The notes: generated by a model from the letters alone, not told the origin. A stretch of 64,000 nucleotides of DNA from Catajapyx aquilonaris (GCA_000934665.2 KZ538249.1:1-64000), one strand, 5' to 3'; shown: positions 12,901 to 45,400, counted from the stretch's first letter. Translations and numbers: made by a program.

Positions 12901-15900
12901 ACAAATCGATTTAAATCAGGCCTGATAACATCCTGTGCTCCACTTTAAAATATGAAACGCCACGTTGGTTGCTACTAGTGGGCACTTCAGTCTCACTTTA
13001 GGCTGCAGGTTAATCTTGGCCACTGGCATAAAAAGAAAAACGGCAATTATTCACAATGGAGCCCACCCAAAGCCCTCATTATTACACCTGCAGATATCAC
13101 AGATATTTCCCTGAGAAATTTGACATGTCAAACATTGTGTATCACAGTACATTGTGCATGGGTATGTAGGTGTGTTGACACCACTTGAATGATATATATA
13201 ATATCAATGCAACCCAACCCACGAAAAATTTAGCGTTCAATGCGTATCAGGCGGCGTGGTCATTTTGTGCGACGTTAAAAAATGTCCACACTGGGCACAC
13301 AATGAAGTAAAAACCACGAGGCACTGATTTAAACAGACTGAACCCGTATGAAATGGATAAATGCGATAAAAACTAAAAGGCCACACGCACAAGCCTTAGT
13401 AGATCGAGAGATGGCGCGGATCTGCGAATGGTCTCATGACAGTTTCTTTGGTGTTGTGCGATAGATTATTCTGACAAAGGGAGTAATGTACTTTTTGATG
13501 CTTCATTCTTTTGAAAAAAGAGGACTCGGTAAACAAAGAACAGGTGAACGTGTTTCAAAACGAGATAAATATGGCTGATATGGAAGATCCTCTGAAGCAG
13601 AGTTGTCAGATATCTGAAGGGGGGGATGGTGGAGGCTGAGGTGAAGAAGGCCATATCATTTCTCTCTGCATTATCACGGGAGAAGGGTGTCAATTTAGGT
13701 GGTTTTGTGGTTACCTTCCGCGTCCCAGTGGGGAGCGACTGCGATCGTAGGAGCGGTAGTAGGATCCTGAGGCCCCATAACTGTCGCCTCCGCCACCACT
13801 GCCTCCTCCGCCACTGCCGCCACCACGGCTTCCATAGCTGTCACGGGTTGAAACATAGTCGTCGTAGCGGCTGCGGTTTGGGCCTCCGCCCGTTCCTCCG
13901 CTGCCTCCTCCACCCCTGGGCCCACCCCGGAACCCACCCCTCCCACCTCCACCTCCCATTCCTCCGCCGCCCCTCCCGCGGAACCCACCCCCACCTCCCC
14001 CGTTGCTCCAGCCACCCCTCCCGCCACCACCTCCCATCCCTCCACCCCTGGGCCCTCCTCGTGGTCCGCCCCTGAAACCACCCCTGAATCCACCCCCCCT
14101 GTCGCCCCCGCCTCCCCTGGGCCCTCCCCGTCCCATGAACCCACCTCCTCCGCCCCCCCTTCCCCGTCCCCGTCCCCTGCCCCTGGATATCTCCACCTTC
14201 AGGGTGCATCCCATGTACTCCTCCCCATTGAGGCGCTCCACGGCAACCTCTGCGTCTTCCTCGCTCTCGAACTCCACGAAGGCGAAACCAGGTGGGTTGA
14301 ATGCCACCCACACGTTGTTCAGCTTGCCATACTTCTCAAACTCCTGCTCCAGGTCCTCCTTCTTCACCACCTCGTTGAGGCCTCCCACATACACGCGGGT
14401 GCCCTGGCCCCGCTCGCCCGTAATCGTCATGCTCTGCAGGGTGGCCATCCGGAGTTGACAGAAGAGAAAGAATGGAGGAATGGGGGGGTTGCAGATGTAG
14501 ATTTCGTATCCCCGGCCAAACGGGCAGTGACATGGAGGGTTCGACAAACAACTCTACCGGTGCACTTGTTCGGCATGTAGGTTAATTTGTATAATTGATG
14601 TTAATGGCCACAATATGTTACGAAAATTTTGTGTGCTGCTACATTTTCTCAACCAGTGCCCACTATGCACTCCACCAGGAAAATATTTAAAGTGTGGGCC
14701 AAACTGGCACACCACCAGTTAAAATTATGCTCAACTTCCTTTCCATTAGGGTGTAGCTTGGCCTTCACATGAAAATCAAGGCAGACGAGGCAGTTGACAA
14801 TGGGTTCACCTCCAAACGAAATTTGTAATTAACCCACCAGCGTCTTAAGATTTCAACCAAAAATGGTCAACCAGAAAAATGCTTACTGGCCTTGGATCCA
14901 CCCATCTAACCAACTCAAGCTGTGCTCAGGAAGGCTATTGTTTGATCAGTTTGGCAAAACTTATGAACAGCATCCAAAGAAACCCAGAAATTCATGGAGT
15001 CTGAGGCCCATTTTCTGGAACAGTGGTTCAAATGTAAACCCTGTTCAAAGCCAGTTTAATGAGGATTAAATCCAAGTTCAGAGAGAATTAAACCAGCCTT
15101 GAACTGGGTTTACATTTGAACCACTGTTCGAGAAAACAGGCCTTCTTATTTGGCTGGCAGCCAATGTGGCAACAAATCGTGGAAAACGTGGCCCAAAAAT
15201 TTTTGTAATGATTTCTAGTCCTGCATGTAAACAGGGCCGATATTGCACTGGACTAAGGACAACGGGACGTAGTTACTTCAAATGGCATGCACATGTGGGT
15301 AGTGTATCGACAATGTTATCACAATCAGGTCAGTAACACCCCATCACTAGGATTGACCTCACAAAAAAAAGATCCCCCAAGGTCAGCCTTTACCCAACCA
15401 CTCCCCAAACATTTCCCCAACCCAAGTTGTAAAAATATTTGGAGCATCTATTAATACCCAGAACTGCTGCCCACTACAGCTTGTTCCGTTGCAGGTAAAG
15501 CCCTAGCGGCAAAAATGTTATGTACTGAAGTTTCACCCAGATAATTTTTCTGGAACAAATCACTACCAGAACTGCTGTAATGCCCATTACGGCATGTTCC
15601 ATTGCATTCAATGCCCAAAGTGGCTGCTTGCAAGTGTTCCTTACTGAAGAATTACCTAGAACATTTTTTCCCCCGCAGAACAAATGACTTGTGCATTATC
15701 CCAACTACTAATGCCAGAACTGCTGCCCATTACGGCATGTTCCATTGCAGGTAATGGACAAATGTCTGCTCAAAAAATGTTATTCATACCCAACCTGCTG
15801 CAAAACCCATTACAGCATGTTCCATTGCAGGTAAAGCCCGAGTGACAAAACAGTACACTGTAAACTGCAAAACATGAAAAGAGCATCGGTGGCGACTGTC

Positions 15901-18630: not shown

Positions 18631-18840
18631 AGCGTACAAAAAGCATCAGTTTGAATATCATTGGGTAAATGCATGTAATTACGTTATTAACGCATAATGC
18701 ATTAGAAAATATACTGCGCTTGATAGTTGCAATAGGAACACAACTTGATTTATTTACAATTGATTTACAACTGACTTGTCTAATGTCATGCAGGTTTTTT
18801 TACCCTCCTGGATAGTAGAGTCCCAAAGCACGCTTGTAGG

Positions 18841-21800
18841 ATGGCAAATAATAATAATTCGGCAAACAGTCCACCGACTGCAGGCAACCAGCCGCCACAA
18901 CACAAGCGTGAATTGCCCCTGATCCTAGTCCCGTTCGGTAGTGATGGTGCTAATTTGCCTGAGAAAGATGCTTTGAACTTGGATGAGACGGTTGAGAATC
19001 ACTTGTACAGTGGGCTCAAGTCCATGAAAGGCTTGAAGTTGGGGAAGAACACCACGCGGCTTGTGATCGCTGGTCAGCCTTTGAACACGGTGGAAGGTTT
19101 GGACACCATGCCACAGTTGTATGAACTGTGGATCAGCGAGTCCGAGCTGAAAGAAGGACCTAATCTGAGGGCCGTGCCATCACTGATATCTCTGACTCTC
19201 ACAGGAAACCAAATAAAAAAAATGCAACCACTCAGTTACCTGCCACAACTGACACTCATCAGGATGGAAAAAAATCAGATTACATCTTTCAGGGTATGTT
19301 TCACTTATTACTGCAGTTACTCATTGTGGTGAAACATAATTTTTCCCATCCAACTGCAGGATTTTGGCACCCTTCCATCTCTGAAGAGGCTTTACGTAGA
19401 TGGCAACTGCATCCACCACCTGTCGGACTTGCGCTTTCAGTTCCCTCGCCTGGAGGTACTCAGCCTGAGCGGGAATCCCATCACCTCTTTAAAGGAACTG
19501 TCCCGTCTGGGCACCCTCCCATGCCTGAAGGAAGTCAATGTGGCGCCAGGCCCCTGTGGGGAATGCCCCGTGTTCCATTCCGTCCTCTTAAATCACTACA
19601 TGACCTACCACCTCCCAAGTCTGGAAAGGATTGGCAATGGCATGGACGTTGGCCCTGAGGAAAAGAAGGAGGCGATTGACTTTCTGACCCAGCGGAAGCT
19701 GATCTACCAGGCGGAGGCGCAGGACGTTTGGAAGAAGCAGGCCTTAGCAGAGCGGACCACAATAACCGAGCATCACCGAAGAATCAACGCTCTTCGGGAG
19801 AGGCTCTACCAGCTCATGGCAGCTCAAGTCAGGATGAGGGACGGATCTAGGATGAAGAGCAAGGAAGATGTGCGTAACTGGTACCTCAAGGTGCAGGCTA
19901 GGATTGATCGCATCTGCAAGAAGGTGGCCTCTTTCGAGGAGGAGCGGATGGTGTCCACAATCAATCTCAAGGCTGAGGCGCAGGTAGGTGCAGGGAAAGT
20001 CTTCATCATATCCAAGTTTCACTGTAATGCACATAAAGTTTAATGTGTGACACATGTTGCAGTCAATATATTTCGAAGAAGCTAATGGAGTTGAATGGTG
20101 TGTGTATTTTAAAATGTAACTGTTTTAAATCCAACAGCTTAAAATACAATACCTAAACATGGAGCTTGAGAATGTCGGGAATGTGGGTCTGGAGAAATTG
20201 CTTCCTGGCAGCAACCCTTATCACCATTGCTCTGCGCTGATGGCAGAGTTTTTTTGTCATCAAGAATACATGTATGCCACGCACGTACTTGTCACAAGTT
20301 CCTAGGAGAAAATGTCAGTTCACTCACGGACAATTACATTCCAACATTGTAACCCGCAGGAAAATGGGAATCACCGGCTACAACATCCTAGAAATCAGCG
20401 GAGTGAAGAACGCCGTCCTGAATAAAGTGTTTGAATCAAGGAAAATGGATCAGGCGTTGGTCGGCATGGGAGACTACAAGCTCAATCACGTTGAGATTGG
20501 ATACGCTTTGCTCGTTCCTCCTGCAGAGTATGACTCTAGGTATACATTACTCAACCACTTAGCTGTGTGAAAGTGTACATCTGCAATGATTCCTCTAAAC
20601 CTAATACTCCCTCCGCCCCAGCTACCTGTCACTGTACACGAGTAATGCAGAGCGAGAGAAGGACTGTGTGTGGCCTCCGATGTGGGAGGACGAGCTGACT
20701 TGGGTCCTCCGGCCCACCGAACACGGCTTCTACCCACGCACTGAGAAGTACCCCGCCCCATCCTGGCTCTTCACAGATTGCCTTGCCCATGCGGACTGGC
20801 GCTGGGTGAAGGACTGGCGCCAGTATCAAGCATCCAAGGAGCATGCCAGGACTACTGCAGCCAGCTTGCTGGATGGTGGCGTGGGGCTGTCGGTCATGCT
20901 GAGGAGAAGGGTGGCACTGCTGGTCAAGATCATCATCAACGATATGGCCCCCTGCAACTTAATGGGTGCGTGGGGACACAGCGACGATGTGTACGTCCAA
21001 GATAGGCGAAAGCCGTCCGCACAGAGTTCGCAAGACTCGCAAGAAGGAGTCGAGGACGGAGAGAAAGAGGAAGAGGATGCGGATTGGAGCTCCATGTACC
21101 GGAATAACTGCGGGCATTGGAAACTCAGGAAAGGTTGCGTTTTCAGTGCCGTGCCGGCTTACCTTGTGCGCTATGAGTACACAGGGTCTGTAAGTGAACC
21201 ATCAACAAAAGCACTCTTAGACAGCGATTATATGCGAGCAATTTGCTCAGCAATGAGCATCAGTGAGTGACGAAACTAATAGTTTGCGGCAAAATAAGTA
21301 ACAATCATGGTAACAATTTATGTTCGCTCCAAACAATAGGTTTCGTTGCTCAGCGATGCTCATCGTTGAGTGAATTGCTCACATGTAAGCATGGCCACAT
21401 ACTTGTAAAGCATGTCCATGATATATTTTAAAGCATTTTATACAACGAAATTTCAAGGCATATTACAGTTATTGTTGTTCAAGCCCACATTTCAACTCGC
21501 ATTGTTGAACTGTTTCAGACGCAGACATTGCCAGCCATATTGCCATCCAATGACGATGAACTTCTTCAGTTTTCCATCACTTACGGTGACAAGCAGAAGA
21601 AAGAGTCGATCAAGTTTGAGATTTTCAGGTACTGACGCAGGATCTCATGCCATTTTTAGAGAAAAACATTAATGCAACAATGCCCTCTTTTGTTCCAAAC
21701 CAAATGAAAAAAAGGAAGCACTTCTCAAGCAAACTGACGGAGTTGGTGCTGTCTGGTCTTGGCTTCAACGAGATGGGTCCTTATCTGTGCCAAGTGGTCG

Positions 21801-25220: not shown

Positions 25221-27455
25221 TTATACCATTACAGTAATTTGCTCTCGGGTTCGTTCTATTTTGATTGGCAGCAGACTGACCATCTCTTGGCAAACCTCCA
25301 ACTCGGGGCTCATAATTTTTGCAGCTTCTGCATGTTTTTCGCAATAATCCACAATTTTCTGTAAATAAAAAAGGTACACACATTACACATCCCGTACCCC
25401 TGTTGTTACAGGTTGCAGTCACCATCCATTTGTTACCTTGTAACTTTCGTAGCTTTTTGTCATGTGGTCTAATTTTTCATTCGGCTCTGGATTGATGATC
25501 TTTCCATGCAGCCTGCCCACATGAAAATAGGCCACCAACGCAGGTCTTAGAGTGTCATCTGAGAATGTCTCTGGCAAGTTGTTGGTACTGTGGAAGATGA
25601 TAAAATGGCATGTTAAGGTTTGTGTGAGCTAAATTATGATTCGTGGGCTGCACCTTGTCTCCCGAAGCGAATTGATGAAGGCCTCGAACTGCTCGAGGCT
25701 CTGCAACGCCAGGCGATTTATCTTCTGCAGGACGTGAGGAGTTGTCTGGTTTTCTGGGTCCTCCCTTAGCCGCTGCAATTTCAGATCCATCATGTCTGAA
25801 AGGATCTCACCAAGCTCAAACCACAGCTGGCGGCATATCAGCAAGTAGTACGTTGGATTCAGTTCTTTCACCACAGGCTCCAGGAGATCCACACGTCGCT
25901 TGTGCATCCTGCACTGCCTATGGTATGCAAATTGTGAATGTAAATGCACTGAAGCTTCATGCCAATATGACAGACAATGGCACAATGCCTAACCTCTCGT
26001 CACTGTTCTCAAAGAAGGCAAGGTGCTTGTAGGCTTGACTAAGATCCTGGACTATCTGCACATGATCTGAAGCATGGTCTTCCATGGAGTAATACTCCTG
26101 TGCCTCCTTCAGATAACGTTGCGTTTCCAAGAAGACCAGCCGGGCATCATCGTAGTCCCGCAGGGGTTTGTACGTCATTTGGTCCTCATACGACGACAGC
26201 TCTAAGGAGGGAAAGCACATCTGGTCCTCCTCTGCCTCCTGTTCACTGCTTGCTTTCTTCTCCTGTTCTTTTTCATCTCCCTTACATTCCTCCTCATTAG
26301 GATCCTCTTCCTCAGCCATCTTCAATAACCGTTCTTTGGAATAGGACAGAAGAAGAAGGCCAAACTTACTCCAACATCGGCAGACGTCAGCTCTTCTGTG
26401 GCGGTAAGCTTCACATCTGAATGGAATATTATCTCCGTCAGTGAAATCCAATATTTCTGCTTTGCATATACTGACCTGGCTTGCTTTTCCTCATCCTCTC
26501 GACTTTGTTCCTGTGCCTGACCCTCCTCAGGCCAACCCTTGTTCAAGTCAGCCCCTAATTCCGCTGCGTACCGATCCAGCACACAAATGGCTGCAGACAA
26601 GTGATGCCTCGCAGGTTTAAATGCATCTCGGGACAGAAAACACTGGGACAAGGTGGCCGCATTGAGGGCCCACTCCACCGGATCTAATTCACCACTCTCC
26701 AGCTGTCGACGCAGTGTGCGGTGGCAGTAACGCACTGACAAATGGTTGTTCCCGAGGTTACCGTGTACCTGCGCCAGGTAATACAAGCTGTGGGTGAAAG
26801 CAGCCTCCAGCTTGGCCAAGTTGCCCACAGACGCACCCCACGGCTCCAACTCTGGACGGAACAGCTCTGCCATATCATAAGGCGGCTCACACACCTCACT
26901 GGTGTAGGTCTCATACAGGCGTTCCGCATTCTCCAGATATTCCTGGAGATGGACAGGTTTTAATTTCATACCGTACGTGCTCCACAATGTGCATACCTGT
27001 GCCTGCTGCGGATCATTCCTCTGTGCCCACAGCACTCCCAACTGGTTCAGCGCGGCCATAGCAGGCAGGACAGACATGGGTGCGGCCATAGCGGCAACGG
27101 ACGATCCTTCTTCCCCTGGATTAAGCGCAGCCAAGCATTGAGTGAGCATCTCCTGTCCAGTGGCCAGCTCCTCGGTGTCCATCCCGATGATTCCCGTCTG
27201 ATAGAGCACCACAGCATGCATGCACCTCAGCCTCTCCGCATCCAGCACAATCACGCTCCCGTCGTCCCTTCCCTCGTCCATTCTCTTAGCCAGCTCCTTC
27301 TTCATGGATTCCAGCACCTCCCTGGCCTTGTACTTTGACCTGTACGGCTCCGTCTCCGGATCCAGCTTGCTCTCCTCCTCCATCAACTTCCGCACCTGCT
27401 CCAGGTCGTGCTGGAGGTCACGCACCCACTCTACGTCCTTGTCTCTTCCTTCCAT
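25221..27455 (-). CDS. KIFBP: KIF-binding protein (KBP/KIAA1279 family); exons 27455-26997, 26942-26476, 26416-25994, 25917-25654, 25587-25437, 25358-25221
   Basis: Motifs DPETEPYRSKYKAREVL, THSLYYLAQV, YCHRTLRRQL, EWALNAATLSQ, QCRMHKRRVDLLE, RPALVAYFHVGRL and ELEVCQEMVSLLP. Exons join in frame across GT-AG introns. Confidence 0.92.
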
Positions 27456-27842
27456 TACTGCTCTGAAAGCAATGGGCATGCTAAAATCACCTAGTATGTA
27501 CCCAATTTTGGTCATTACACCTCACAATTTACTCACCTAGTTTAATTGTTTGACCTTTATATTTTTTGTAATTGGTCTTTCTGTACCTTGCTAAGCTTAC
27601 CTGAGTTTTTTTGCACCTTCCTGTAGCTATTGGTTTGGGAAGGAAATCAACCAACTCTTGAATTTGCTGAAAATAAGTCACTTTCTGCAAATACTATCGA
27701 TCGACCGTACTATTGACATCTACAAATAACGATCCAAATGTCGATACTATTCTGAAACGCGCCAAATTCAAGCTTTCTTATTAATTTATTAATTATTTCT
27801 AAGTACAATTTGTCTGAGCATTTTGTTGGAATGAGTAGATTT

Positions 27843-30800
27843 TCATGGCTTGGGCAGCCTGTATGTTCCTCCTGAGAAGAGGAGCTTCTGTTCCTGCACT
27901 TTTCTGTCCAGGAAAAGTCGCAGCTCTTGCAACGACCAGTCCCCGCCTGTTGGTCCCTGCAGTGCGAACATTCGGAGCATCTGGTGGATCCTTTCAAGGG
28001 GAAGTGTTTCTAGATTGGTCAGCATGCCCACTATGTATGACCAGAACACTTGGAGCTCCTCTTCACGTTGGTCCTGTGCGGACGCAAGAGCACTTTCCTC
28101 TTCGTCTTCCTCGGCGGCTGAGAGATCTAGGATTGGGCCTTCTGCACCACTGGTTCCCGCCCCGTATCCACCCTTGCCGCTGCCTCCCCCTCGGAGTGGA
28201 CCTTCCTCGCTGACCACAAATACATCTGTGGACACCTCCCGCAGCAGGCCCTGTGACTGCCAGAAGCCCATTCGGCGACGAAGGAGAGATGATGGCACTT
28301 TCATCACTTGACTCAGCTCTTCAACACTCCACTGGTCTGATAAAGGCAAGGATAAATAATTTGCAAGATGGCACTTGGAATTATAGACTCACCTTTTTCC
28401 TGGAAGTGCCAGATAATAGTAGCATGAACTGGCGACACAGTGAATGTGATTGTGCGTCCCTTTACTTCTACGTCAAGAGTCACAGAGCCCAAGTGCGGTT
28501 TCCAACTTAGAGTGCGGCTTGCCTATGGAAATTCATTTTGAATAAAATCAGGCAGCAACACTTAGGTATATTCCAATATTTTTGAAGTTCAGCTTGATGT
28601 CACCGTTGTTCTTGTAATCCGACAACAAGGTGGCATCAATCAGAACTGATCACACTGCTGTTAAAAGAAAAATTCTTAATTATTTTTAAGGTAAAGCACC
28701 TTGAGAGTCTCAAATGCCTTGGTGTATGCCTGAAGCTGACTTGAAATCTGAGGGGGCAACTCCAATATCTCTTCCCGTAGAGTAGGCCAAAACTGTGCTG
28801 ACACAATCATGGCACTGACATTAAGCGGCGGTGACCCATCTGCTGCCTCTTGAGTTCCTGTTACTAATGTCGGGTCTGACTCGAGTCTGGAATTAATCCT
28901 CTTTGAGTCATACATGTCCTTCAGCATGACTTCACAATCATGCAGCAGAGCTTCTCCAAAACGAAGCTTCAGCAGTTCCAGGTAACGAATTTCCCTCTCC
29001 ATACAGTCGAAATGATGGGCAAGAAGACGTTCTGCCAGTAGAGATTGGTACTCCTTGGCAAACACCTCTGTACTGCCGTATATAGACACCAGGAGTGATA
29101 TGATGTCTGCTGAACGGTGTGTCGAACGACCACCTTTGACACCGCCTCGTGGGTCAGCGTCCATGGGGTCGGGAAGCCATGTAGCCCATTCCATGCTCGT
29201 TGTTTCTTCTTCATCATCTTCTTCCATAGCAGGGCCTCCAGTGCCAGACTCATCCATCATCCTGCATGTTAAAAAATTAATTCATGAAATAATAATTACT
29301 ATATTTAAGTGTGTAGGCTTCACGAGTAATACGTACACTGAATCGACAGTCCTGACGCCTCCTCTTCCTCCACCCCCTTTAGCAAGCTCCTGCGCAAGTT
29401 CACTCTCTTCCAACAAGCTTGACAAAATGCATCTAACAGTGTCACGTCGGGAACGAAGGTAGCGTCTGACTGGAAGGCACACTAGTTGTAGGAGGACCCC
29501 TTGAGGATCAAGCTGCCTCAGGGTATGAATTGCTGCAATGTAGGCAGTCAAAATATCACTGGTATTCACTCCTGGATGGAGGAGGCGGGACTGAAGCGCG
29601 TTTCTAAGACTGGTCACCAAATGAGGGCGGAGGCCAGGTGGGGAGCGTGGAAGGCATTGCCTGAGGTCCTCTACTGCCGCTTGAGATTCAGGATAGTCTG
29701 TCACGAGTAAACAAATAATATGATTATAATTAATCAAGGAATTGGTTCAATTTATGCAAAGCAATGACTTGCCTACGATGATGCTAAAAAGCTGGTCGAT
29801 CCGTGTGTGAGCGAGCGTTTCATAAAAATAAAGCAGAAGTTGAGAATGGAACGAGGAGCGAGATTCAAGGACCTTGTCAGGGCCGTATATTACTTTCAGC
29901 CAGCCAACCACTGCCACTTGCAACCACTGAAAAATTTAAACCATTCCAAAAATTAAATCGTTGTACATACTCTTTGCATGTTAAAGAAAATTACAACATC
30001 TGTTGGTCATAATGTAAAGCAAATGTTCGTAAACTGTTGTCAGATAACTGCAATTTAGGTGTTGTTTTTTAAACGTACCTCTTCTAACACCTCCAATTGT
30101 GCTTGAAAATTAGCTTGGCATGACCTCTGCACATGACCTTTAATTTGCTCCTGAATGAGCTCCAGCAGTGCTCCTCCTGCAAGCGGATCTAGGAGTCCAA
30201 GAAACGTCAGCTGCTTGTTGACATCATGGAAGGAGGATATCACCTCATCGCATCTGCACCGCACCTGCTCACATCCACGGCAAGTGTCTGCATCATCCTT
30301 ATCGGTGCCCTCACTCTCAGCCCGATACGAAAACACCCGAAACGACCTCTCATAAAACGCAATCACCCCAACATGAAACTCAGCCGGTATCTGAGCATGA
30401 AGCATGGGCCGCAAATTGCAAAGGAATGTGTCCACCTCTCCCTTCTTGCCTTCAACCTTTCCTTTCAGATGTTCCATAGCCTATGGAATATGATAGGTAC
30501 ATTAAAAATAAAGTATGTAATTTTTCCGTCGATCTCACCTGAAGCATTGGTGTGAGCGACACAATTGTATGATGCAATTCTCCCACCGCAGTCTTGAACA
30601 TATCGCACAGCCCATCCTGGCTCTCCTCCTTCGCCTCGAAGTGCTTCCAAAAGGACGGCACCACCGCCTGCCTTGCCAGCCGTTCCAGAGTCACTTCCAC
30701 CATTCCGACCGTCCCCGTGGTTATGTCCAAATCCTTCAGCACTGCTTCTACATACTCCAAATCGTCAGGAGCTGCACATACTGCTTCTTTATCCCATGGA

Positions 30801-34805: not shown

Positions 34806-35882
34806 TCACTCCGTGTTGGAGATCAAGACGTAGATCATTCTGGAATAAACGAAACGAATCAGTTGATCTACAATTATTTCTCGCGTTCAAAAAAATGCTG
34901 GCGACTAATTAGATCCTACATTGGCTTCAAGTGGCCTAACTTATCTAGCAGATGACTTATGTAATCTGTCTGAATCATATTGATTATGCATACATGTCAA
35001 GTAGGCACATGCCAGCGTGGCTTCATATAATATCAAAAACATATAACTTACCCATAAAGGTAATAGAAAAATGAGAGTATGTAAAAGGCGAGCTTGATCC
35101 ATCCTTCTCTCTGGCAGCGGTTGAGTATGTCCGCATTCATAATACACGTCGGATCATACAGGCCAGGAGAGCTCATCACCGGCCTCGTCCGGTACCTGCA
35201 TGGAAAATTTATATGCTGTGTCATTATTAAATGCAGGCGAAGAGTGTCAGTACTTTCAAATGGCGCTTCCTGCTTTTACATGTACGTACTTTAGCTCATA
35301 AGCCATCCCAGACTCGTAAGGGAGTACCAACTTCTTATCAAGGCGTACACTAGCTACATTACAAGCTACTTCTCACAGCCAGTACTACACACCCATTACT
35401 CTTCAGTTTTGTTAATTTTATTTATTTATTTTATTTATTTAAGTACCCTTCAGTTGCAACCTCCTCGCCTTGAACCACCTTACCTGTTAATATGATACCC
35501 AACTAACGGCAAGTTGAGACAGAGCGAGAACCACTCCCCGGACGCCAGAAACAGTAAGTTGAAGAATATGTGCAGCGCATACTCGGGAAGCACCAACTGC
35601 AAATGAAAATAATCCATGTAACGCACATACGTTACAATACCAAAGCGACCTTACCGGGTTGAGACTATTGCACTGGTCTATCGGATTCTTATAGTCGGTC
35701 TTCAGCTCATCAAACGCTATAATCTGCAATGGTCCAGTACAACGTTAGTTACATTGCAATGTATGACTTTTTATGACCCCCCCCAACAGGGTATGACTCA
35801 CGTGGAAGATGGCGAAGAAGATGAGGAAAGCGTCTATGATCAGGGCGCAGATGTATGCGAATGCTGCGAAGGTGAAGGACAT
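34806..35882 (-). CDS. cni: Cornichon; exons 35882-35802, 35723-35655, 35596-35484, 35195-35052, 34839-34806
   Basis: Spliced product [56 protein letters not shown]...[58 protein letters not shown]. Confidence 0.96.
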
Positions 35883-36240
35883 CGCTGCGTGCGGGACACT
35901 ACGGGACAAAAGATACGGGAGCGGGACTGTCCGGCGAAGAAGAAAAGACAACTGGACACTAGACGATTAGAAGTAGTCCGCCGGCTACTATCGTCACTCA
36001 CATATTTAAACTGGTTCAATTTAAACCGATTTAAACATGGTAGTGGTTGCATGCCCAAGAAAGTGTTAATTAATTAGTTATTAAACTAGTTTAAGTCACG
36101 TGCCATTAACTACAAATGATATCAATAGGCGTCGATAGTAACGATCATTTGACTTTGTTCCTGTTTGTTCCTGACTTCCTGTTTGGTTTACAACTTTACT
36201 TTCCTGCAAAGGAGGTCTGAACAGTTCTGAACAGTCGGCA

Positions 36241-36559
36241 ATGTCGGACAGCAAGGATAAGGATAAGTCAGGCAAGGCCAGCCCTAAAGAGAAGAAGAAG
36301 CAGACGGGCCAGGTGGACATGGGCCACTTCGAGGAGGACGATGAGTTTGAGGAGTTTCCCGTTGAAGGTGCGGTGTGCTTTCCATTGTGTGTAAAAAGGA
36401 CTGGTTTTTTAGTGGGTGTTTCTTGCAGATTGGACGAGGGATGAGGAGAGCAAAGGGGAGAGCCACATGTGGGAGGACAACTGGGATGACGACAAGGTGG
36501 AGAGCCCCTTCAATGCGCAGCTGAGGGCGTCCCTGCAGAAGTTCAAGACTGGGAACTAA
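36241..36559 (+). CDS. SEM1: SEM1/DSS1 26S proteasome lid subunit; exons 36241-36367, 36429-36559
   Basis: ..DMGHFEEDDEFEEFPVE|DWTRDEESKGESHMWEDNWDDDKVESPFNAQLRASL.. contains both acidic DSS1 motifs. Confidence 0.93.
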
Positions 36560-37142
36560 CGGCGGCGAGGATTAGTAATCAACAGCTGCCAGTTCAACCG
36601 ACATGGACAGGATGTGGAAATTTTTTCTGTATAAAAACCCATCAACTTAAAAGTAAACTGATCTCATTGATGTGCGTGCAAAGCTTTTTCCAAGTGTGGA
36701 GGTTTCAGTTTGCAACTGGCTTACAATATTGTACGAGTTTTTTGAAAATAAAGGAAGTAAAACTGTGCTTCTGTGATTGTCTTCACTATTCAAGGCATCT
36801 GCAAATATTTTTATTGTGTTACTTACAAATGTCATGTGTCACATATGTGCAAACATTACTGTCGCTTATGTCCTCAAGTCTTGTAGGACTTGCCTTGAGG
36901 GAAAGGGAGAGTAGAAAGGAAGAGAGGGTGAACATTAACATCTTCTGTACGATCATATCCGAGTCATATGTATAACTACATAAATTTATTGCTCCTGTAA
37001 CATTATCAGGTATATACATGTTCCATATGTTCCAATATCACATACAATGGACGTGTAAAATAAAGTAAGCTGAAATAAGTACCATTTAAGTAAAAAAAAG
37101 CAGGGAAGCATTATTTTGTTGATATACAGTAACAGCCCAGAA

Positions 37143-37237
37143 TCTGACATTTCGAGAACATGTTAAAACATCCAAGTACCCCCAGGGCCTGACCCTTTAT
37201 GGGGAACTCATCATACTCACCCTCTTGACATGTCAGA
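37143..37237 (-). promoter_or_regulatory. SECIS element (form 2) in the 3' UTR of SelL copy 1
   Basis: Sense RNA reads AUGA-UGAGUUCCCCAU-AAA-GGGUCAGGCCCU-GGGGGUACUUG-GAUG. It has the AUGA/GA quartet, helix II, unpaired AAA, an apical mini-stem and an outer helix UCUGACAU/AUGUCAGA, and lies ~50 nt after the TAA. Confidence 0.9.
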
Positions 37238-37263
37238 TACCAAGCGTTACATTAGAACCAACG

Positions 37264-38430
37264 TTACTGGAGGGCTTGCATTATCTCATCCAGATTTGGC
37301 CTGTCGGTAGGATTTTGATTCAGGTGACACATGAGGAGTTTTCCCTCAGCATCTGCAATGATGTCTCCACCCATTTGCAGCAAATCATCAGGAATGTCAT
37401 TGTCGTGAACCAGTGGTTTCAAACCTGATGCCAGGATCTCGGTGTAACTTATAAGGCCTTCGAATCTTGCTGTCTGAATGCCAAGAAATTAATATTTAAT
37501 TGAAAGGAGAGGGTATTGAGTTCATAATCCCATGAGTTCAAACCTAACTAATGGATAGGATAAAAAGGGATTATAGCACAAAATTGAACTTCTCAATACC
37601 TACCAGATAAACAGATCTCGGTGCTCCAACAGAATTGTAGAGCATCATTGTTGGGTCCACATACACATCAAACTCGCACTTTGTGTCGGACACCCATTTT
37701 AAAGCCTCACCTTGATCCGAAAACGAAATTATTAGCACGGAGCAGCCAGCTTTTTTCAGTTCATCCTGGAATTGCACAAATATTGTAATTGTCGGTGTGA
37801 ATCATATTAGTAACACCGTACCTGATGTTGCTGCAGCATGCTCACATGCTGTCGTCACGGCAATCAGCTAAGGTGACGCAAAAGCACGAAGAGGCAAGTC
37901 CTGTCGTTGAGCACTTCCAGCAAAGTCTGTACTTCACCAGTGGTTAATTTCGTCAGCTTGATGTCTGCAGGCAGCTTTCCGCCTTTTCCAACGGGTGCAT
38001 TTGGAGCCACATTTCGGCTCATGTTCACATCCAACTCTTTCTTCAGATAATTATCCCAAGCATACTGTGGAAAGATAGGTAAACTCATGTCCTGTTTTTT
38101 AAGTGAAGCCCATACTCACTTGTGCTTCATACAGTTCATCAATTGCATCCTTGACTTCCTTTGATGGATCTTGCTCAACCGACACACGAACCGCATCGTT
38201 CAGAGTGGCCACTCCAAGGCTACAGAAAAGGCTGCGTTACGACCAAGCCCACTACAATATATGATTGTGGCCTACCTCTTAAAAAGTGTAAGATAGAGTT
38301 TGACAAAAATGGGCAGAATCTTCCCACCCTCAAAGAGCTTCTCTGGGTCACCCTGGCAGTGCTCCCTTGCCTTCACTATCAAATCAAGGAGGGTCTCCGT
38401 CGCAGTCTGGAATGCCTCAGCACCTCCCAT
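37264..38430 (-). CDS. SELENOL: Selenoprotein L (thioredoxin/AhpC-TSA-like fold, UxxU), copy 1; exons 38430-38276, 38219-38120, 38064-37822, 37765-37604, 37473-37264; 289 aa, Sec at residues 152 and 155
   Basis: Reads CLFVLLRHLS-TGA-L-P-TGA-RQHVSMLQQHQ (TGA at 37866-37864 and 37857-37855). The frame continues through GT-AG introns to QMGGDIIADAEGKLLMCHLNQNPTDRP. A SECIS lies downstream. Confidence 0.9.
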
Positions 38431-38831
38431 GGTGGTGCCACACTCTGTACTGAACACTAGACCTTCGACCTCACTAGACGGTGCGATGATCAGATGATTA
38501 GTAGAGAGTACAGAGGTCAATTGAAGTCATGAGACATGGCACGTGGTTTGGACAAGGAACGAGCCGACACGTTCCCTCACTTGTTGTGGCACGAACGCAC
38601 CCTCGGTGATATCACACTGGCGGCAAATAAAAGCCAACTGACTGTTGATTTCTCGTTCTACTTACGAGAGCAACCGAGTGCGTATCAACACTAGCGCAGA
38701 TCCATATATTGTTCTTACTGTTACAACACAGCTTTGCCAGAGTTACTACCGTACCTGTAGCCAGTGAGGTTCGTTTCAGAGCCTTGGCAACTTCGTAACT
38801 CGTCCCCCTAGCGTAGCGTTGGAAATAAGTG

Positions 38832-39110
38832 CCCAGGTAGCACAAAAAGTTGGGCCAATATTGGACGAATGTTGGCCCAATATCTTGAATCTTGGGCAAT
38901 ATTGGCCTATCTAGCCACTCTGAAGCCATTATTGGGCCGATATTGGCAGCAGATCTATTCCCATTCAAACTCCTCAAGCAGCACAAAAAGTCGACCCAAC
39001 GTAGGAACCAATGTCGGGCCGATGTCGCGTGAAGGTCGGCAAATATGTCGACGTAGCCAGTCTGCTGTGGCGAATCTTGGCCGAATGTCGGGAGCCGACC
39101 TATCCCCATG
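38832..39110. mobile_element. Two adjacent fragments of a CCCAG-terminated MITE-like repeat
   Basis: cccaggtagcacaaaaagttgggccaatattgg.. and agcagcacaaaaagtcgacccaacgtagg.., with repeated ccaatattgg / ccgatgtcgg submotifs. Confidence 0.4.
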
Positions 39111-39452
39111 CTAACTCCTGCGAAGGCAGATAATAGCGTAGCAGCTTTATAATGCGTGACGTCGCGAGTTGTGTCGTGTGTACAGTACAGGAGTAGCCTA
39201 CTACCAGAAGAGAGACGAGAAAAGGTTGCTTGAGAAGCTGCTGGGCCAATAATAAGAAAAGAAAATTGCGAATGCTGACATGGTTAGCTTTCAATTTTGA
39301 CCTAATTAATTACCATTAAACTACCAGAGGTTGCGTTCCTTCCTCCTAGCAGTAGTGTGCTGATGATAGTCTCGTCCGAGGTAATGTCACTGCAATTTTC
39401 CTTATGAGTAAATTCACTTTCGGCCACATTGTTATGACGTTCGTTTCAATTC

Positions 39453-39543
<91 letters not shown>

Positions 39544-39549
39544 AATAAT
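39453..39549. repeat. (AAT)n microsatellite
   Basis: About 32 taa units with one interruption. Confidence 0.97.
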
Positions 39550-39680
39550 TGTTCAGCAAATTGTGAAATTGCACTCTCCAATTTGAATAAGAAGACAAAG
39601 TAGGAAAGACGTCCCACACCACGAGTTGGAGGCTTGACGCTGGCGGTGTGGCATTTTCGCTAATACTAATACGTATAGTT

Positions 39681-39757
39681 GGAGGCCTTTATGCACAAAG
39701 GAACCAGGTGTCATGTGAATCACATGACACCTGGTTCCTTTGTGCATAAAGGCCTCC
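39681..39757. repeat. Perfect palindrome, 38-bp arms with a 1-nt spacer
   Basis: ggaggcctttatgcacaaaggaaccaggtgtcatgtga-a-tcacatgacacctggttcctttgtgcataaaggcctcc. Confidence 0.95.
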
Positions 39758-40188
39758 GTTGTAATACAGGCCTCTTGACGTCACAATGGCAATAATGATC
39801 AATAGTAAACTAGAGATGATGTCACACCTTGTTATTTGCAGAATGGGTGCCATTGTGATTTATTGTTCGGAATTACGGGTACCATGTCTTTTATGAATGC
39901 AATGTACCCAAAAAGTAGAGGGTCAAATTTTTGCCGCACTGCTAGTTACTGCTAACTAGCTATAGCAGTAGGCCTATACAGGCTGTACCATTGCCAACAC
40001 GGGTGCTGTTAATATTATGGTAAGTCCTACATCAATTTATTGCTCCTGTAACAGATATTATCAGGTACATGTTCCATATGTTCCACTACACATATCATTG
40101 ACATATAAAATGTGGTAAGCTCAAATGAGTACCATTTAAGTAATAAAAAGCAGGGAAGCATTTGTTGATATACAGTAACAGCAAGGAA

Positions 40189-40286
40189 TCTGACATTTCA
40201 AGAACATGTTAAAACATCCAAGTTCCCCCAGGGCTTAATAACCCTTTATGGGGAACTCATCATACTCATCCACTTGATGTGTCAGA
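40189..40286 (-). promoter_or_regulatory. SECIS element (form 2) in the 3' UTR of SelL copy 2
   Basis: Sense RNA reads AUGA-UGAGUUCCCCAU-AAA-GGGUUAUUAAGCCCU-GGGGGAACUUG-GAUG, with outer helix UCUGACA/UGUCAGA. Confidence 0.9.
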
Positions 40287-40312
40287 TACCAAGCGTTACA
40301 TTAGCACCAACA

Positions 40313-41460
40313 TTACTGGAGGGCTTGCATTATCTCATCAAGATTTGGCCTGTCAGTAGGATTTTGATTCAGGTGACACATGAGGAGTTTTCCCTCAGCA
40401 TCAACAATGATGTCTCCACCCATTTGCAGCATATCATCAGGAACATCATTGTTGGGAACCAGTGGTTTCGCACCTGACGCCAGGATCTCGGTGAATCTTA
40501 CAAGGCCTTCGAATCTTGCGGTCTGAAATCAAAAGGAATGGATTCTTAATTATTGAAAGGAGAGAGCGTGTAGAGTATACGTAATACTATACTAAAGTGG
40601 TCAATTGAACTTTTCCTATCAATACCTACCATATAAACAGATCTCGGTGCTCCGACAGCATTGTAGAGCATCATCGTTGGATCAGCGTACATATCAAACT
40701 CGCACTTCGTATCGGACACCCATTTTAACGCCTCACCTTGATCCGAAAAGGAAACTACTAGCACGGAGCAGCCAGCTTTTTTCAGTTCATCCTGGAATTG
40801 CGCCAAAATTTTAATTTTTTGTGCGAAAAATAATTTTATTTCCGCCATACCTGATGTTGCTGCAGCATGCTCACATGCTTTCGTCACGGCAATCAGCTAA
40901 GCTGACGCAAAAGCACGAAGAGGCAAGTCCTGTCGTTGAGCACTTCCGGCAAAGATTGTACTTCACCAGTGCTTAATTTTGTCAGCTTGATGTCTGCAGG
41001 CAGCTTTCCGCCTTTTCCAACAGGTGCCTTTGGAGCCACATTTCTGACCATGTTCACATCCAACTCTTTCTTCAGAAAATAATCCCAAGCATACTGTGGA
41101 AAGATAGGTAAACTCATGTCCTGTTTTTTAAGTGAAGCCCATACTCACTTGCGCTTCATACAGTTCATCAATTGCATCCTTGACTTCCTTTGATGGATCT
41201 TGCTCAACCGACACACGAACCGCATCGTTCAGAGTGGCCACTCCAAGGCTACAGAAAAAGTCTGCGTTACGACCAAGCCCACTGCAATATATGATTGTGG
41301 CCTACCTCTTAAAAAGTGTGAGATAGAGTTTGACAAAAATGGGCAGAATCTTCCCACCCTCAAAGAACTTCTCTGGGTCACCCTGGCAGTGATCCCTTGT
41401 CTTCACAATCAAATCAAGCTGGGTCTCAGCTGCAGTCCGGAAGGCCTCAGCACCTCCCAT
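40313..41460 (-). CDS. SELENOL: Selenoprotein L copy 2; exons 41460-41306, 41248-41149, 41093-40851, 40791-40630, 40522-40313; 289 aa
   Basis: Reads CLFVLLRQLS-TGA-L-P-TGA-RKHVSMLQQHQ (TGA at 40895-40893 and 40886-40884). Exon lengths equal those of copy 1 (155/100/243/162/210), and there are no other stops or frameshifts. Confidence 0.9.
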
Positions 41461-41709
41461 GATGGTGCCACACTCTCTACTGATGGACACAGCAGGCCGT
41501 GCGACGATCAGGAGACTGGTAGAAAGTAGCCTACATAGAGGTCAATTGAGTGGATCGGAACACCTTTCCAACTGAGAAAACACGATTTTGCTGAAGCAAA
41601 GTTAAAAATCCGCTAAAATCTATTAAATCAAAATTAAAATCCTCTCCACTACTCAGAATTCATATACATTCAAGGCACGATTCAGGTCAGTATTCTAAGG
41701 CCGTGATTC

Positions 41710-41824
41710 AATGTAATAAACAACGAAAACTTTCAATAATGAGGACAGTGGCGACTGTGGCGTAACTAGTCGACTAGTTACGCCACTGTCCTCATTATTG
41801 AAAGTTTTCGTTGTTTATTACATT
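41710..41824. repeat. Near-perfect palindrome centred on actagtcgactagt
   Basis: aatgtaataaacaacgaaaactttcaataatgaggacagtggcg pairs with cgccactgtcctcattattgaaagttttcgttgtttattacatt. The left arm has a short extra duplication. Confidence 0.9.
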
Positions 41825-42482
41825 TATATTATATTTATTTATTTGTTTGTTTGTTTCTCAATGTCTATATTTAGGCGTCTCGCAAATACCACATATACGT
41901 GACTGAATTTAGGCCACATTTCCACCCCGCGCGTGTTTTTTTATTATTTTAAAGGCAATGTGATCAGAAAATGCTAGCTCCTCAACTTAACCACGCACGT
42001 AAAAAAAACATGCCTCCCAATGTTTTCGGGGTCGCTGATTTCGAATTTTAGGTTATTATTTTGAACCAAAACCTACAGAGTGATGTACCGAAAACACTGT
42101 TGAATTTAAGAGCTTGTAGGATAAATTGTTCTTAATTAATTAAGAGGGTTACTAAAAGAATTTATTCCATATAAGCTCTCTGTAGGTCTCATACATACGG
42201 CCACCTATGATCCGCCTGGGTAAGCACACTCCCATCAGCGAGCGCCTCACCCAGCCGGACCTGGAACTACCCGGCGTGGCTGGGCCGTCAGTTCCCTTCC
42301 AAGGCTCCAGCCAGCTGCAGGGAGACTCACTCGTGTGATGGCCGCAGTGATGGTCAGGTGGAAGCAGGTCCTCTTCCGCCACCCGCCGCTCCTCCTCCTC
42401 CTGCCCGTGGCTCGCCCCTGAAGTGTCCCGTGTGTGTGCGTGTGCGTGCCCCCTCCACTGGAACAACCAGCCACACGTCACT

Positions 42483-45400
42483 ATGAACTTGGCCCCCGCT
42501 GCCTATGCCTGCTATGTAGGCGCGTTCTGTGTCCTCCTCACACTGGCACACTCACAGCTGGTCATCAATGTCAAGAACCAGGTGGGTACAAGTTGGGGGG
42601 CCGCCCATGGGCACGCCCCGAGTGGCTCAGAGAACCACCACAGAATATGGTCTTAACCAAGGTCATAAATACAGTAAGGTCCAGTAGAACACCCAAGTGT
42701 GTTGATGTGACAGTGATCTTGTCGTGCAGCATGGTCTGATTGATAATGTACCTGGGGCTTATCTTGTGACGAATGGTGTCGCTGGTGACATCCTGGCCTG
42801 CTGAATTGTTTCACCAAGGTCGCCACTTCAGCAATGGGGATGATATGAAGTTTGTGGGACATGCCGGGGAGTGAAATAATGCTGGCAGAAATTAGCGCAA
42901 CCCTAAGGGGTAATCAATTAGGGAATCCAATTACATTTTTATCGGGAATGCCAGGGAATCCCCACAGGGAATCACAATGAGGAAGGGAATCCTATAACGT
43001 GTACTCCTTGCTGAGTTTTGAGCTCTCGTTGTGTGGCCATAGTTTAATAATTATAATGGTGTATTTTTAAATGTGCGGGTAACTTGTTAATAATAAGAAA
43101 CATCCGATGCATGTTTCGCAGGAATTTAAAAAATTACAGCGATTGCGTATGCTGTAAATTAAGCCATTTTGATGCAAAGCGGGGCAACACTGGAGGGAGA
43201 AATGATATACTCAAATTTTTATATTCATGCAGTGGTGTGTAATGGAGGTACTCTCATTATCCGGTTTTTGTGTTTTGCAGAGCTTCTAGCTAAATGTCAT
43301 GCTCTTAGTGTCTTGTTTTATGCCTCCAAATGCTCCAGGCAATATGATGGATGGAAGGCCTAATGTAATGGGAAAAAAAACTCAATGTTCACATGTTTTT
43401 GAAATGTATGCACCTGCATTTGGAAAGTGCTGTGCCGGTGCATAACCACACAGAACCTATGAACAATGCAGTCCTTTTTCATTCATAATTTGTGAACTCT
43501 GCATTGAATTACAGCAATGCTCCTGTAAAAATATTGGCTGGGAAAAGCAAAGGTTTTCATAAACATGTGGAATTTGGGGGCTATTTTTAAAATTTGTGCT
43601 CATATGATATTAATGAAGTTAATTTAGCATTGTTTTACAGTTACTGAATGCAAATATGTGGTGACTTTATGATGTTGGGCATTATAAATTTATGCTGTGT
43701 ACTCGAATTAAACATACCGGATAGTTCTTGTGCTAGTTCTGGCATTACAGTATTTTACAGCAAGTGAGCATGAATAGTTTAGGAAAGCATGGAAACCTAC
43801 CCATTATGTTCTGTTAGGTCTTGATGAATGATATAATTTCTCTATATTATGATAGAATAGGTTGGTAAGCAAACACTTGTATTCTGCTTCCTGCATTACA
43901 TTTCATTACTTGTGTTGTACAGCAGCAGGAAGTGGTTTTGAAATATCATTTGAAAAGGCAAACTGTTTACAATGCTGAAGCATGTTTGTTTTGTTACACG
44001 GTACCATATTGTTCAGTAATGTAAGAATGAAAACTACACACTCGGCAAGGATGTTGATCCTAGCACTTGAAGATATCTGGCATTCTTGGCACCTGGTAAA
44101 ATCATATGTCTGAATTTAGCACATGAATTTCATTTAAGTTTTTTATTGTGTTGTAAGTGATTATAACAGCAAGTCATGTGACCATGATATTTCTAGATTC
44201 TTCAACAGCTATACTCACTGCACTATGTAAGTAAATAATAAATAAATAAGGTTACTAATGCAGAATTGTGAATTGGAAACTCATGACAAAATCAATACAA
44301 AAAAAAACCACTTGTTTTGACTTCACGTAAATCTAAAATTTTGTGTCAACATTTCGCTTGACTTCTACCTCAGCTTTTTGTCATATAGTGTTAGTGCCCA
44401 GCAATCACACCGCCTGAAACTCGCTGCCACTACGGTTTGTGCCAGCAAGAGCAGCAATGTTTGCCGGTTGCCATTTTATAATAACGAGCCCAATTGTGCA
44501 TATCAGTCATCTCTCTTAGCTGATTGGCCACGCCGCTGCAAAATGCACATGCCGCTGAGGCAGATGCCATGAAAGGACAATAAGGCTTTCGGCGGCTGTC
44601 TTGTTTGGAAATGTCACTCATATGTGTGGTTTTGCTTAGCTCACCATGTGTGCGGTGGTAATGGAAGACTCGATAAATCTCTGCTTGCCCAGAACATATG
44701 AAACAGACAGGGCAGAATATGCATGAGGCTGTGCATAATAATGATATTGACTTTGTGTCACTCCCAGCTAATGACTGTTCTTTGAGAGTGTAGCACTGTA
44801 CGCTACATTTGGTTTGCTGCTGGAGTGTGGGAGGGGTGGTTGGGAGGAAGGGTTACATGATTTATAACATTATCGTGGTGGAATTAGATGTTTTATGGAC
44901 TGGCCGGGAGTGGTATGAACTATGCACTTTTAGGAAGTTATACATATCATGCGCCGGAACCAACTCTTTGAACATCTTCAATATATGCAATGTGAGGTGC
45001 AGGCGATATTTTCGATTAGTAGTCAATTAATCTGCTGGGCCAGTAGAATCTCCCTGCTGAGCAGGCTTATCACATGCATGATGGACTCTGGGTCAATCCA
45101 CACGTGCGGCTAGAGCAAAATGGGTCAGTGTGTGGAAAAAATGTCCAAACAGCATATATGACCAGGTTAGCATAATTTAATTAATATAATAATTTTATCG
45201 TGTACATATTTGATTAGCGATTAAATCAAGTGGATAAAAGGCTGGTGGATTGAGCCATGGTGATTGGTATTATTATGGCACTGAAATTACATATGGTCAT
45301 ATCTATTTGGACTGGCATTGGAAACTGACACTTTGAATTATGTGATATAGGCAAATCAGCATTTCTGTAGGCCAGCTAATTGTAAGTAACTGCTGGATTA

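Follow-up and report, generated by a model that had tools for sequence, protein, structure and literature searches.

The stretch of Catajapyx aquilonaris DNA analysed here (64,000 nucleotides (nt), GCA_000934665.2 KZ538249.1:1-64000; referred to below as the window, all positions being those of the whole stretch) very probably carries a local head-to-tail duplication of a complete SelL/SELENOL-type gene, that is, a selenoprotein gene with two UGA codons for selenocysteine (Sec), in which both copies are constrained and transcribed and the 5' third has been homogenised. For both copies, designated here as A (36960..38453) and B (40027..41483) and located on the minus strand, the gene structure, its intactness, the constraint on the protein and the presence of transcripts could be demonstrated. 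By analogy we infer Sec insertion and a diselenide in the two products as well as, possibly, a division of labour between them. SelL is a peroxiredoxin-like (Prx-like) protein with a diselenide bond, which two papers describe as limited to fish, invertebrates and marine bacteria (PMC2397514, PMC2398784). Its Sec residues are two residues apart, and a single selenocysteine insertion sequence (SECIS) element serves both of them (PMC3316567).

Two complete genes in direct tandem

The segments 36976-38453 and 40027-41483 form a single direct-repeat alignment (blastn) of 1498 columns with 87.6% identity. In a repeat search over 35000-43500 this alignment appears as six families of direct repeats (D2-D7), each with two copies that are 74-300 nt long, 85-93% identical and 3026-3050 nt apart, which jointly tile 37039-38453 against 40089-41483 and are joined into one by blastn. 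An initial annotation of the window, made from the sequence, had placed direct repeats at ~36983-38525 and ~40033-41548, running from the poly(A) signal to the 5' untranslated region. The repeat is real, lies at this place and is far above chance. Furthermore, the outer limits proposed for it coincide with real features, i.e., with the AATAAA signals on one side (36985..36990 in copy A and 40036..40041 in copy B) and with a 13-nt motif common to both upstream regions on the other (38512-38524 and 41537-41549). The copies have only the transcription unit and about 95 nt upstream in common; as far as about 95 nt before the ATG, the 13-nt motif and a few other blocks are present in both. No third SelL copy was found in the 64-kb window by tblastn with both proteins (all other matches E >1).

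Each copy consists of five exons of identical lengths (155, 100, 243, 162 and 210 nt), comprising 289 codons and a TAA stop, and the four introns of each copy (eight out of eight in total) have GT-AG borders. The transcription unit of copy A begins at a TCAGT motif, 21 nt ahead of the ATG, and continues until about 25 nt beyond AATAAA. Its gene model comprises exon 1 (38276..38430, ATG at 38430-38428), exon 2 (38120..38219), exon 3 (37822..38064, phase 0, with both Sec codons), exon 4 (37604..37765) and exon 5 (37264..37473, TAA at 37266-37264), followed by a SECIS-like element (37158..37222). In copy B, whose limits were set by homology to copy A in addition to the gene model and a contig of the sequencing run X5 (see below), the corresponding parts are exon 1 (41306..41460), exon 2 (41149..41248), exon 3 (40851..41093, again with both Sec codons), exon 4 (40630..40791), exon 5 (40313..40522, ending with TAA) and a SECIS-like element (40204..40271). 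The TCAGT motif is found 21 nt before each ATG, exactly at the start of the high-identity block; we take it to resemble the arthropod initiator consensus. A scan of 38400-38800 for bacterial promoters and terminators gave 0 sites, a result that is not meaningful for an animal gene.

TGA codons 152 and 155 are in frame in both copies and lie six nucleotides apart in the motif U-LP-U. In copy A they are located at 37866-37864 and 37857-37855 (RHLS-U-LP-U-RQ), in copy B at 40895-40893 and 40886-40884 (RQLS-U-LP-U-RK). These flanking residues are as quoted in the initial annotation, and so are the substitutions listed there for exon 5 (ISYT versus VRFT, GLKPLVHDNDIP versus GAKPLVPNNDVP). The gene models also confirmed its statements that the exon lengths are identical and that both UGAs and the reading frame are kept in the two copies, since there is no indel in 870 coding columns. 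Its central proposal, a tandem of two intact genes of the SelL type that have two Sec codons and a SECIS apiece, is supported by the gene models, protein profiles, Rfam matches and folds. Each SelL copy represents its own transcription unit, with a short promoter-proximal region, five exons, two UGAs and one SECIS-like hairpin. One simple course of events at the locus would be that about 1.55 kb was first duplicated in direct tandem and that insertions then separated A from B.

Relationship to the SelL family

Exon 4 matches the Pfam family AhpC-TSA_2 (PF13911) with E 1.5e-9 in copy A and 3e-9 in copy B, and exon 5 matches it weakly. In NCBIfam, exons 3, 4 and 5 of A and B alike match a single family, NF040769 ('SelL-related redox protein'), a bacterial subfamily model; note that the family searches were made exon by exon, which lowers their sensitivity. 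The matches are colinear (profile positions 10-51, 53-99 and 116/128-172 of 173; E 2e-6 to 3e-11). In copy A, exon 3 covers positions 11-51 (E 2e-9), exon 4 positions 53-99 and exon 5 positions 128-172 (E 4.5e-10); in copy B, exon 3 matches with E 5.5e-7, exon 5 with E 2.7e-11, and exon 4 is matched as well. Both TGAs are within the exon 3 stretch aligned to positions 10-51. Thus, A and B resemble this family by colinear matches over positions 10-172 of 173, whereas they differ from it in being animal genes with introns, a eukaryotic SECIS and an extra N-terminal part of about 125 residues. No Pfam family was matched by these first about 125 residues, which are encoded by exons 1 and 2 together with the first half of exon 3.

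A word-index protein search with exon 3, restricted to longer proteins, produced 60 candidates, none of them at E <=0.001. A HMMER search with the same exon against 1.84 billion representatives gave two matches, P0001 and P0002. P0001, a repeat protein of the RCC1 type, was regarded as spurious. P0002 is exon 3 of a gene on a metagenome contig (L001, 2956 nt), and in the protein library it has Trp at both TGA positions. This contig carries at 1308-2062 a SelL-type gene of another eukaryote, in which both positions are TGA (motif U-LP-U-RQHV) and in which the borders of exons 3, 4 and 5 are formed by phase-0 GT-AG introns whose positions agree with those in copies A and B. Its product is identical to that of copy A in 67 of 200 residues (33%) and to that of copy B in 65 of 200, and here, too, NF040769 is the only NCBIfam match. 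The motif and the intron positions of L001 show that conservation of the U-LP-U core and of the gene structure extends to a distant relative. Rfam SECIS_1 gave no match in L001 at E up to 1. An AUGA...AAA...GA stretch near 2107-2160, recognised by eye, is a candidate that is not established (fold z -1.2). Sequence matches of exon 4 in the PDB were confined to designed TIM barrels (E 7e-4 or worse) and were taken as chance.

In A, B and L001, UxxU is present at the redox-motif position of the thioredoxin fold. AhpC-TSA_2 proteins containing cysteine (Cys) have Cys at the redox motif. They have the Pfam domain in common with the copies (exons 4-5), but both redox positions are TGA in A, B and L001. 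The features linking the pair to SelL/SELENOL are the U-LP-U motif, one SECIS-like hairpin per gene and the AhpC-TSA_2/SelL-related fold. The predicted product of 289 residues would consist of an N-terminal part of about 125 residues and a thioredoxin-fold domain (Prx-like 2/AhpC-TSA_2). If both UGAs are read through by the SECIS-dependent machinery, as the published SelL proteins suggest, U-LP-U would occupy the place of CxxC in thiol oxidoreductases and could form a diselenide.

SECIS-like elements

SECIS-like hairpins are located at homologous places in the 3' untranslated region (UTR) of both copies, one per gene and about 45 nt after the stop. They correspond to sub-threshold matches of Rfam SECIS_1 on the minus strand (37158-37222 with 26.2 bits and E 0.081 in copy A, 40204-40271 with 28.2 bits and E 0.023 in copy B), in agreement with the SECIS proposed for each copy from the outset. 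Form 2 SECIS elements are characterised by an AUGA/GA quartet at the base of helix 2, an unpaired AA(A) and an apical mini-stem. Both folds have a lower stem, an AUGA/GA internal loop, a helix 2 of 10 bp, an unpaired AAA and an apical mini-stem, and the hairpins as predicted are form-2-like. In copy A, AUGA is found at 37214-37211, the AAA bulge at 37198-37196 and GA at 37172-37171. The GA/GA quartet of SECIS elements is supported by PMC3316567.

The SECIS is 94% identical between the copies, compared to 84-88% in the remaining 3' UTR. The two elements differ by a 3-nt insertion in the apical loop of B and at one helix 2 position (U-U in A, U-A in B); helix 2 of copy B is fully paired where copy A has the mismatch. 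The fold of copy B has -27.1 kcal/mol (z -2.9) and is better than 200 of 200 shuffles.

Selection on the two copies

The copies differ in 58 of 870 coding nucleotides and 30 of 289 residues. Non-synonymous divergence (dN) is 0.050 and synonymous divergence (dS) 0.144, giving a ratio of 0.35 (Nei-Gojobori), which is not near 1: the 95% range of a codon bootstrap is 0.20-0.59, and none of 1000 replicates reached 1. Fisher's test for synonymous against non-synonymous changes in the whole coding sequence (CDS) gave p 1e-4. From the first UGA to the stop, the ratio is 0.29 (Fisher p 1e-3); therefore, the frame past the UGAs is constrained, as expected if it is decoded. Furthermore, there are 0 gap columns in 870 coding positions versus 43 against 576 aligned non-coding positions (p 2e-17), and in a neutral copy evolving at the per-lineage synonymous rate 2.6-3.4 stop codons would be expected, the chance of none being 0.03-0.08. 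Both copies are held by purifying selection on these measures.

Exons 3-5 contain 24 differences, 12 of which could be polarised with L001 as outgroup; seven of them changed in B and five in A, so neither copy is decaying alone. The substitutions H149Q and Q157K, which flank the motif, are among those where A has the ancestral and B the derived residue.

Transcription of both copies

X5 is a public run whose sample and study are different from those of the DNA runs (X1-X4, see below) and whose kind is not on record. It behaves, as we infer, as an assembly of complementary DNA (cDNA), because its contigs skip all four introns of copy A (joints 37473>37604, 37764>37821, 38064>38120 and 38219>38276, all CT..AC on the plus strand) and because it also has GT-AG joints in two neighbouring genes. 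The contigs on copy A, which support exon 2 besides the joints, cover 36959-37336 and reach 38435; at the 3' end of the gene they stop at 36959, about 25 nt past AATAAA. Copy B is represented by a 341-nt contig (40045-40385) with 0 differences. This contig takes in the last part of the CDS together with the SECIS and the greater part of the 3' UTR, where more than 30 places distinguish A from B. X5 thus contains copy-specific sequence of both genes, in the form of spliced contigs for A and of a 3' contig for B, and both copies are transcribed. The run is without cover over 40520-41523, and this blank on copy B is uninformative because the 5' exons of A are covered far more thinly than its 3' end. 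Contig depth in X5 (31-34 for the 3' contigs of A, 6.3 for that of B) was not used for ranking expression.

Mosaic divergence and probable gene conversion

Divergence between the copies is distributed very unevenly. Exon 1 is 92% identical, intron 1 96%, exon 2 99%, intron 2 100% and exon 3 94%, while exons 4 and 5 have 91% and 92% identity. Intron 3 (73%), intron 4 (59%, with 31 gap columns) and the upstream 107 nt (64%) are strongly diverged, in agreement with what had been noted at the outset for introns 3-4 and the upstream regions. The near-identical 5' third including introns 1-2 goes beyond that annotation and is newly seen here. This tract, a putative gene conversion tract on the minus strand, extends from the end of exon 1 to the start of exon 3 (38053..38336 in A, about 41082-41366 in B) and contains at most five differences in 285 columns, both short 5' introns included. 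A 238-column stretch with at most four differences was obtained in 0 of 2000 permutations, even without introns 3 and 4, and introns 1+2 differ from introns 3+4 with p 3e-13 (Fisher). Coding constraint cannot account for identical introns, which makes gene conversion the simplest reading and most likely the cause of the tract; conserved intronic elements are the alternative.

The 5' third being homogenised, divergence is not a simple clock. It amounts to 0.14-0.19 at synonymous sites, 0.17 in the 3' UTR, 0.33 in intron 3, 0.59 in intron 4 and 0.49 in the upstream 107 nt. As synonymous and 3' UTR divergence are below those of introns 3-4, the exons may underestimate the age of the duplication.

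Integrity of the locus in the assembly

Contigs of the DNA runs X1, X3 and X4 chain the locus without spanning both copies. The contig 35500-37336 ties the downstream flank to A, 38307-38859 ties exon 1 of A to the spacer, 39728-40385 ties the spacer to the 3' end of B, and 41337-41753 ties exon 1 of B to its own upstream DNA. Both copies are thus connected to a unique spacer, which speaks against a haplotype artefact. The contigs break at high-copy repeats, an AAT run, a palindrome and the near-identical tract. Per-contig depth in X1, contig depth being a poor measure, is 27.8 and 20.4 for A, 20.5, 20 and 22 for B and 22.5 for the flanks; thus, the copy-specific contigs are about equal to the flanks rather than at half their depth. 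Seven X1 letters at 37851-37951 that differ from copy A are all (7/7) the letters of copy B and stem from a B contig aligned to A, not from a third variant.

The spacer between the copies (38454..40026, 1.57 kb) is not duplicated and consists largely of repeats. Sensitive blastn of the spacer against the upstream region of B, and of the region downstream of A against the spacer, revealed nothing at E <=1 except for one 22-nt chance match.

Genomic neighbourhood

High-copy repeats that are unrelated to each other are located 330-800 nt upstream of each SelL copy. That in the spacer (38763-39013) has a summed contig depth >1000, that upstream of B (41775-42276) one of 120-720, with the flanks at about 22-35. 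A 223-codon open frame on the minus strand (38612-39283) overlaps the high-copy repeat, has no Pfam family at E <=0.01 and may be a transposon remnant. The spacer also contains an (AAT)n microsatellite (39448-39550), which occurs again 37 kb away at 2530-2612, and an almost perfect 77-nt palindrome at 39681-39757 (98.7% self-complementary, blastn). The latter has sub-threshold matches to several microRNA (miRNA) precursor models on both strands (the best with 39 bits versus a gathering score of 56), and the depth of its bin is 385 in X4 (flanks about 35), 20.6 in X1 and 71 in X3. In appearance it is closer to a foldback repeat or a repeat of the miniature inverted-repeat transposable element (MITE) type than to a miRNA gene.

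Downstream of copy A there is a convergent plus-strand gene at 36201-36975, which is spliced in X5 (intron 36366-36426) and matches no Pfam family. Its frame ends at 36975, within about 15 nt of the end of the copy A transcript (X5 contig start 36959), and therefore the two 3' ends abut or overlap. A minus-strand gene at 35596-35980 is spliced in X5 as well (joints 35596>35655 and 35723>35802). Other neighbours in the window encode ZW10 (4472-7441, plus strand), a KIF1-binding protein (26322-27521, minus), the cullin-like APC2 (28676-29746, minus), an RRM protein (13711-14553, minus) and an LRR protein (18784-20043, plus). The long exons and short introns of the neighbouring genes are those of a compact animal genome. 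The best named matches of the ZW10 exon (43-44%) and of the APC2 exon (54-57%) are cockroach and termite proteins; for the APC2 exon, scorpion and Priapulus reach 54%. These matches point to an ecdysozoan, probably an arthropod.

Discussion

The reading of the locus as two constrained and transcribed SelL-type genes has to be weighed against several points. Both SECIS_1 scores are below the gathering score of 35, and no Rfam match at the gathering threshold was found within the window; the hairpin of copy A has a z of only -0.35, with 70 of 200 shuffles folding equally well, and the two SECIS matches are homologous and so count as one observation. The summed NF040769 exon scores (roughly 104 and 103 bits) are below the cut-off of 120, and the assignment to SelL was made via profiles and the motif. 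The DNA runs X1-X4 come from one sample and are possibly the assembly's own data, and there was no single contig across both copies in the runs examined. The RNA nature of X5 follows from its splice joints rather than from its record. Concerning selection, pairwise dN/dS is the mean of two lineages, L001 is a very remote outgroup (33% identity) by which 12 of 24 sites could not be polarised, and a redundant copy can stay intact through gene conversion even if selection does not act on it.

Three other histories of the pair can be considered. It is extremely unlikely that the copies are alleles (haplotypes) of a single SelL gene which the assembler set in tandem. The missing contig across both copies, the origin of X1-X4 from one sample that may have supplied the assembly's own reads, and the contig breaks inside the near-identical tract would be compatible with such an artefact. 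However, the 1.57-kb spacer is unlike either flank and is physically joined to the 5' end of A and the 3' end of B, the flanks outside the unit are unrelated, unlike those of haplotig artefacts, and introns 3 and 4, with 73% and 59% identity and 34 gap columns, are far above the usual allelic difference. Moreover, the copy-specific depth, for all that it is a poor measure, is about at flank level and not at half of it, and both forms occur in a second sample, X5. Somewhat less improbable, though still hard to reconcile with the data, is the redundancy of one copy, more likely B, whose intact look would be due only to youth and to conversion from its neighbour. Roughly one fifth of the unit lies in the conversion tract, the residues beside the redox motif (H149Q and Q157K) are derived in B, the recognisable upstream sequence that B has in common with A is only about 95 nt long, and pairwise dN/dS cannot separate the two lineages. 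Nevertheless, exons 3-5 have diverged by 6-9% outside the tract with dN/dS 0.29 and without an indel or stop, where a neutral copy at a per-lineage divergence of 0.07-0.095 should have accumulated 2.6-3.4 stops plus frameshifts. Relative to the outgroup, seven replacements fall on B and five on A, the SECIS of B has the better-paired helix and the higher Rfam score, and a B-specific contig is present in X5, the run with spliced contigs.

The third history concerns age and is compatible with two functional genes: the duplication may be old, with exons, 3' UTR and 5' introns looking young through repeated conversion. We regard this as possible, if somewhat doubtful. Synonymous (0.14-0.19) and 3' UTR (0.17) divergence are well below those of intron 3, intron 4 and the upstream region, there is one clear conversion tract, and the block of similarity starts at the TCAGT motif and ends just past AATAAA. 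On the other hand, short AT-rich introns with indels align poorly, as the 31 gap columns of intron 4 illustrate, and their divergence (K) is inflated; outside the tract, the differences are fairly even over exons 1 and 3-5; and with two sequences and no close outgroup an old and a recent history are indistinguishable. Taken together, a duplication of a complete SelL-type gene with both copies retained under constraint is the reading that we prefer.

The only hints that the copies have diverged in function are the dissimilar upstream DNA and, in B, the derived residues next to the motif. Since the upstream regions, introns 3-4 and 30 residues have diverged, the copies may differ in regulation and perhaps in redox properties. 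A division of labour, which we put forward tentatively and consider rather unlikely, would make B a diselenide oxidoreductase with a shifted redox potential or another partner, and with another expression pattern. A would keep the ancestral RH..U-LP-U-RQ, and B would owe its properties to Q149 and K157, a cluster of changes in exon 5 and an unrelated upstream region, while gene conversion would keep the common N-terminal part identical.

The event itself is an ordinary local gene duplication, in a family that is not reported as duplicated in the searchable papers. We found no described SelL duplicate in the searchable literature; note that some searches were swamped by unrelated terms and that the founding SelL paper is outside this literature. 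In Table 1 of PMC3473315, SelL is listed with one copy in five of six invertebrates and with none in the sixth. The accessible text of a 2026 survey reports SelL in nearly all vertebrates but tetrapods and mentions no duplication (PMC13134290), and the selenoprotein list of Strigamia, as given in Table S26 of PMC4244043, has 20 entries without SelL. Thus, SelL/SELENOL is listed elsewhere, in those parts of the sources, with 0 or 1 copy, whereas two tandem copies are present here. Tandem clusters of other selenoprotein families have been described, some with a homologous SECIS for each member; the portions of PMC3473315 and PMC7539508 at hand include the sponge AphC-like a/b genes, amphioxus SelP, DI clusters, Gpx, MsrA and SelU3 as well as algal tandem pairs of SELENOW, SELENOU and PRX. 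The Catajapyx pair resembles these clusters, as far as they are described there, in that adjacent selenoprotein genes of the same family arose from local duplication. SelL is not listed among them in those portions, however, and several have incomplete or SECIS-less members, whereas both members of the SelL pair are complete, with two Sec codons each.

SelL is one of very few proteins with two Sec residues forming a diselenide. The pair shows that a gene whose expression requires two costly UGA recodings can be duplicated and retained, its SECIS being more conserved than the remaining 3' UTR. It is also a warning for annotation, as such genes are truncated at TGA or translated with Trp (as in P0002), and SelL copy numbers in public protein sets are therefore unreliable. 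Two maintained copies represent a natural experiment in which 30 residues differ, including both of those flanking the motif, and comparing the two in redox potential, partners and expression could reveal the constraints on the motif. If the copies have indeed divided their labour, they would be the first natural pair of paralogues for studying how the residues around UxxU tune diselenide chemistry.

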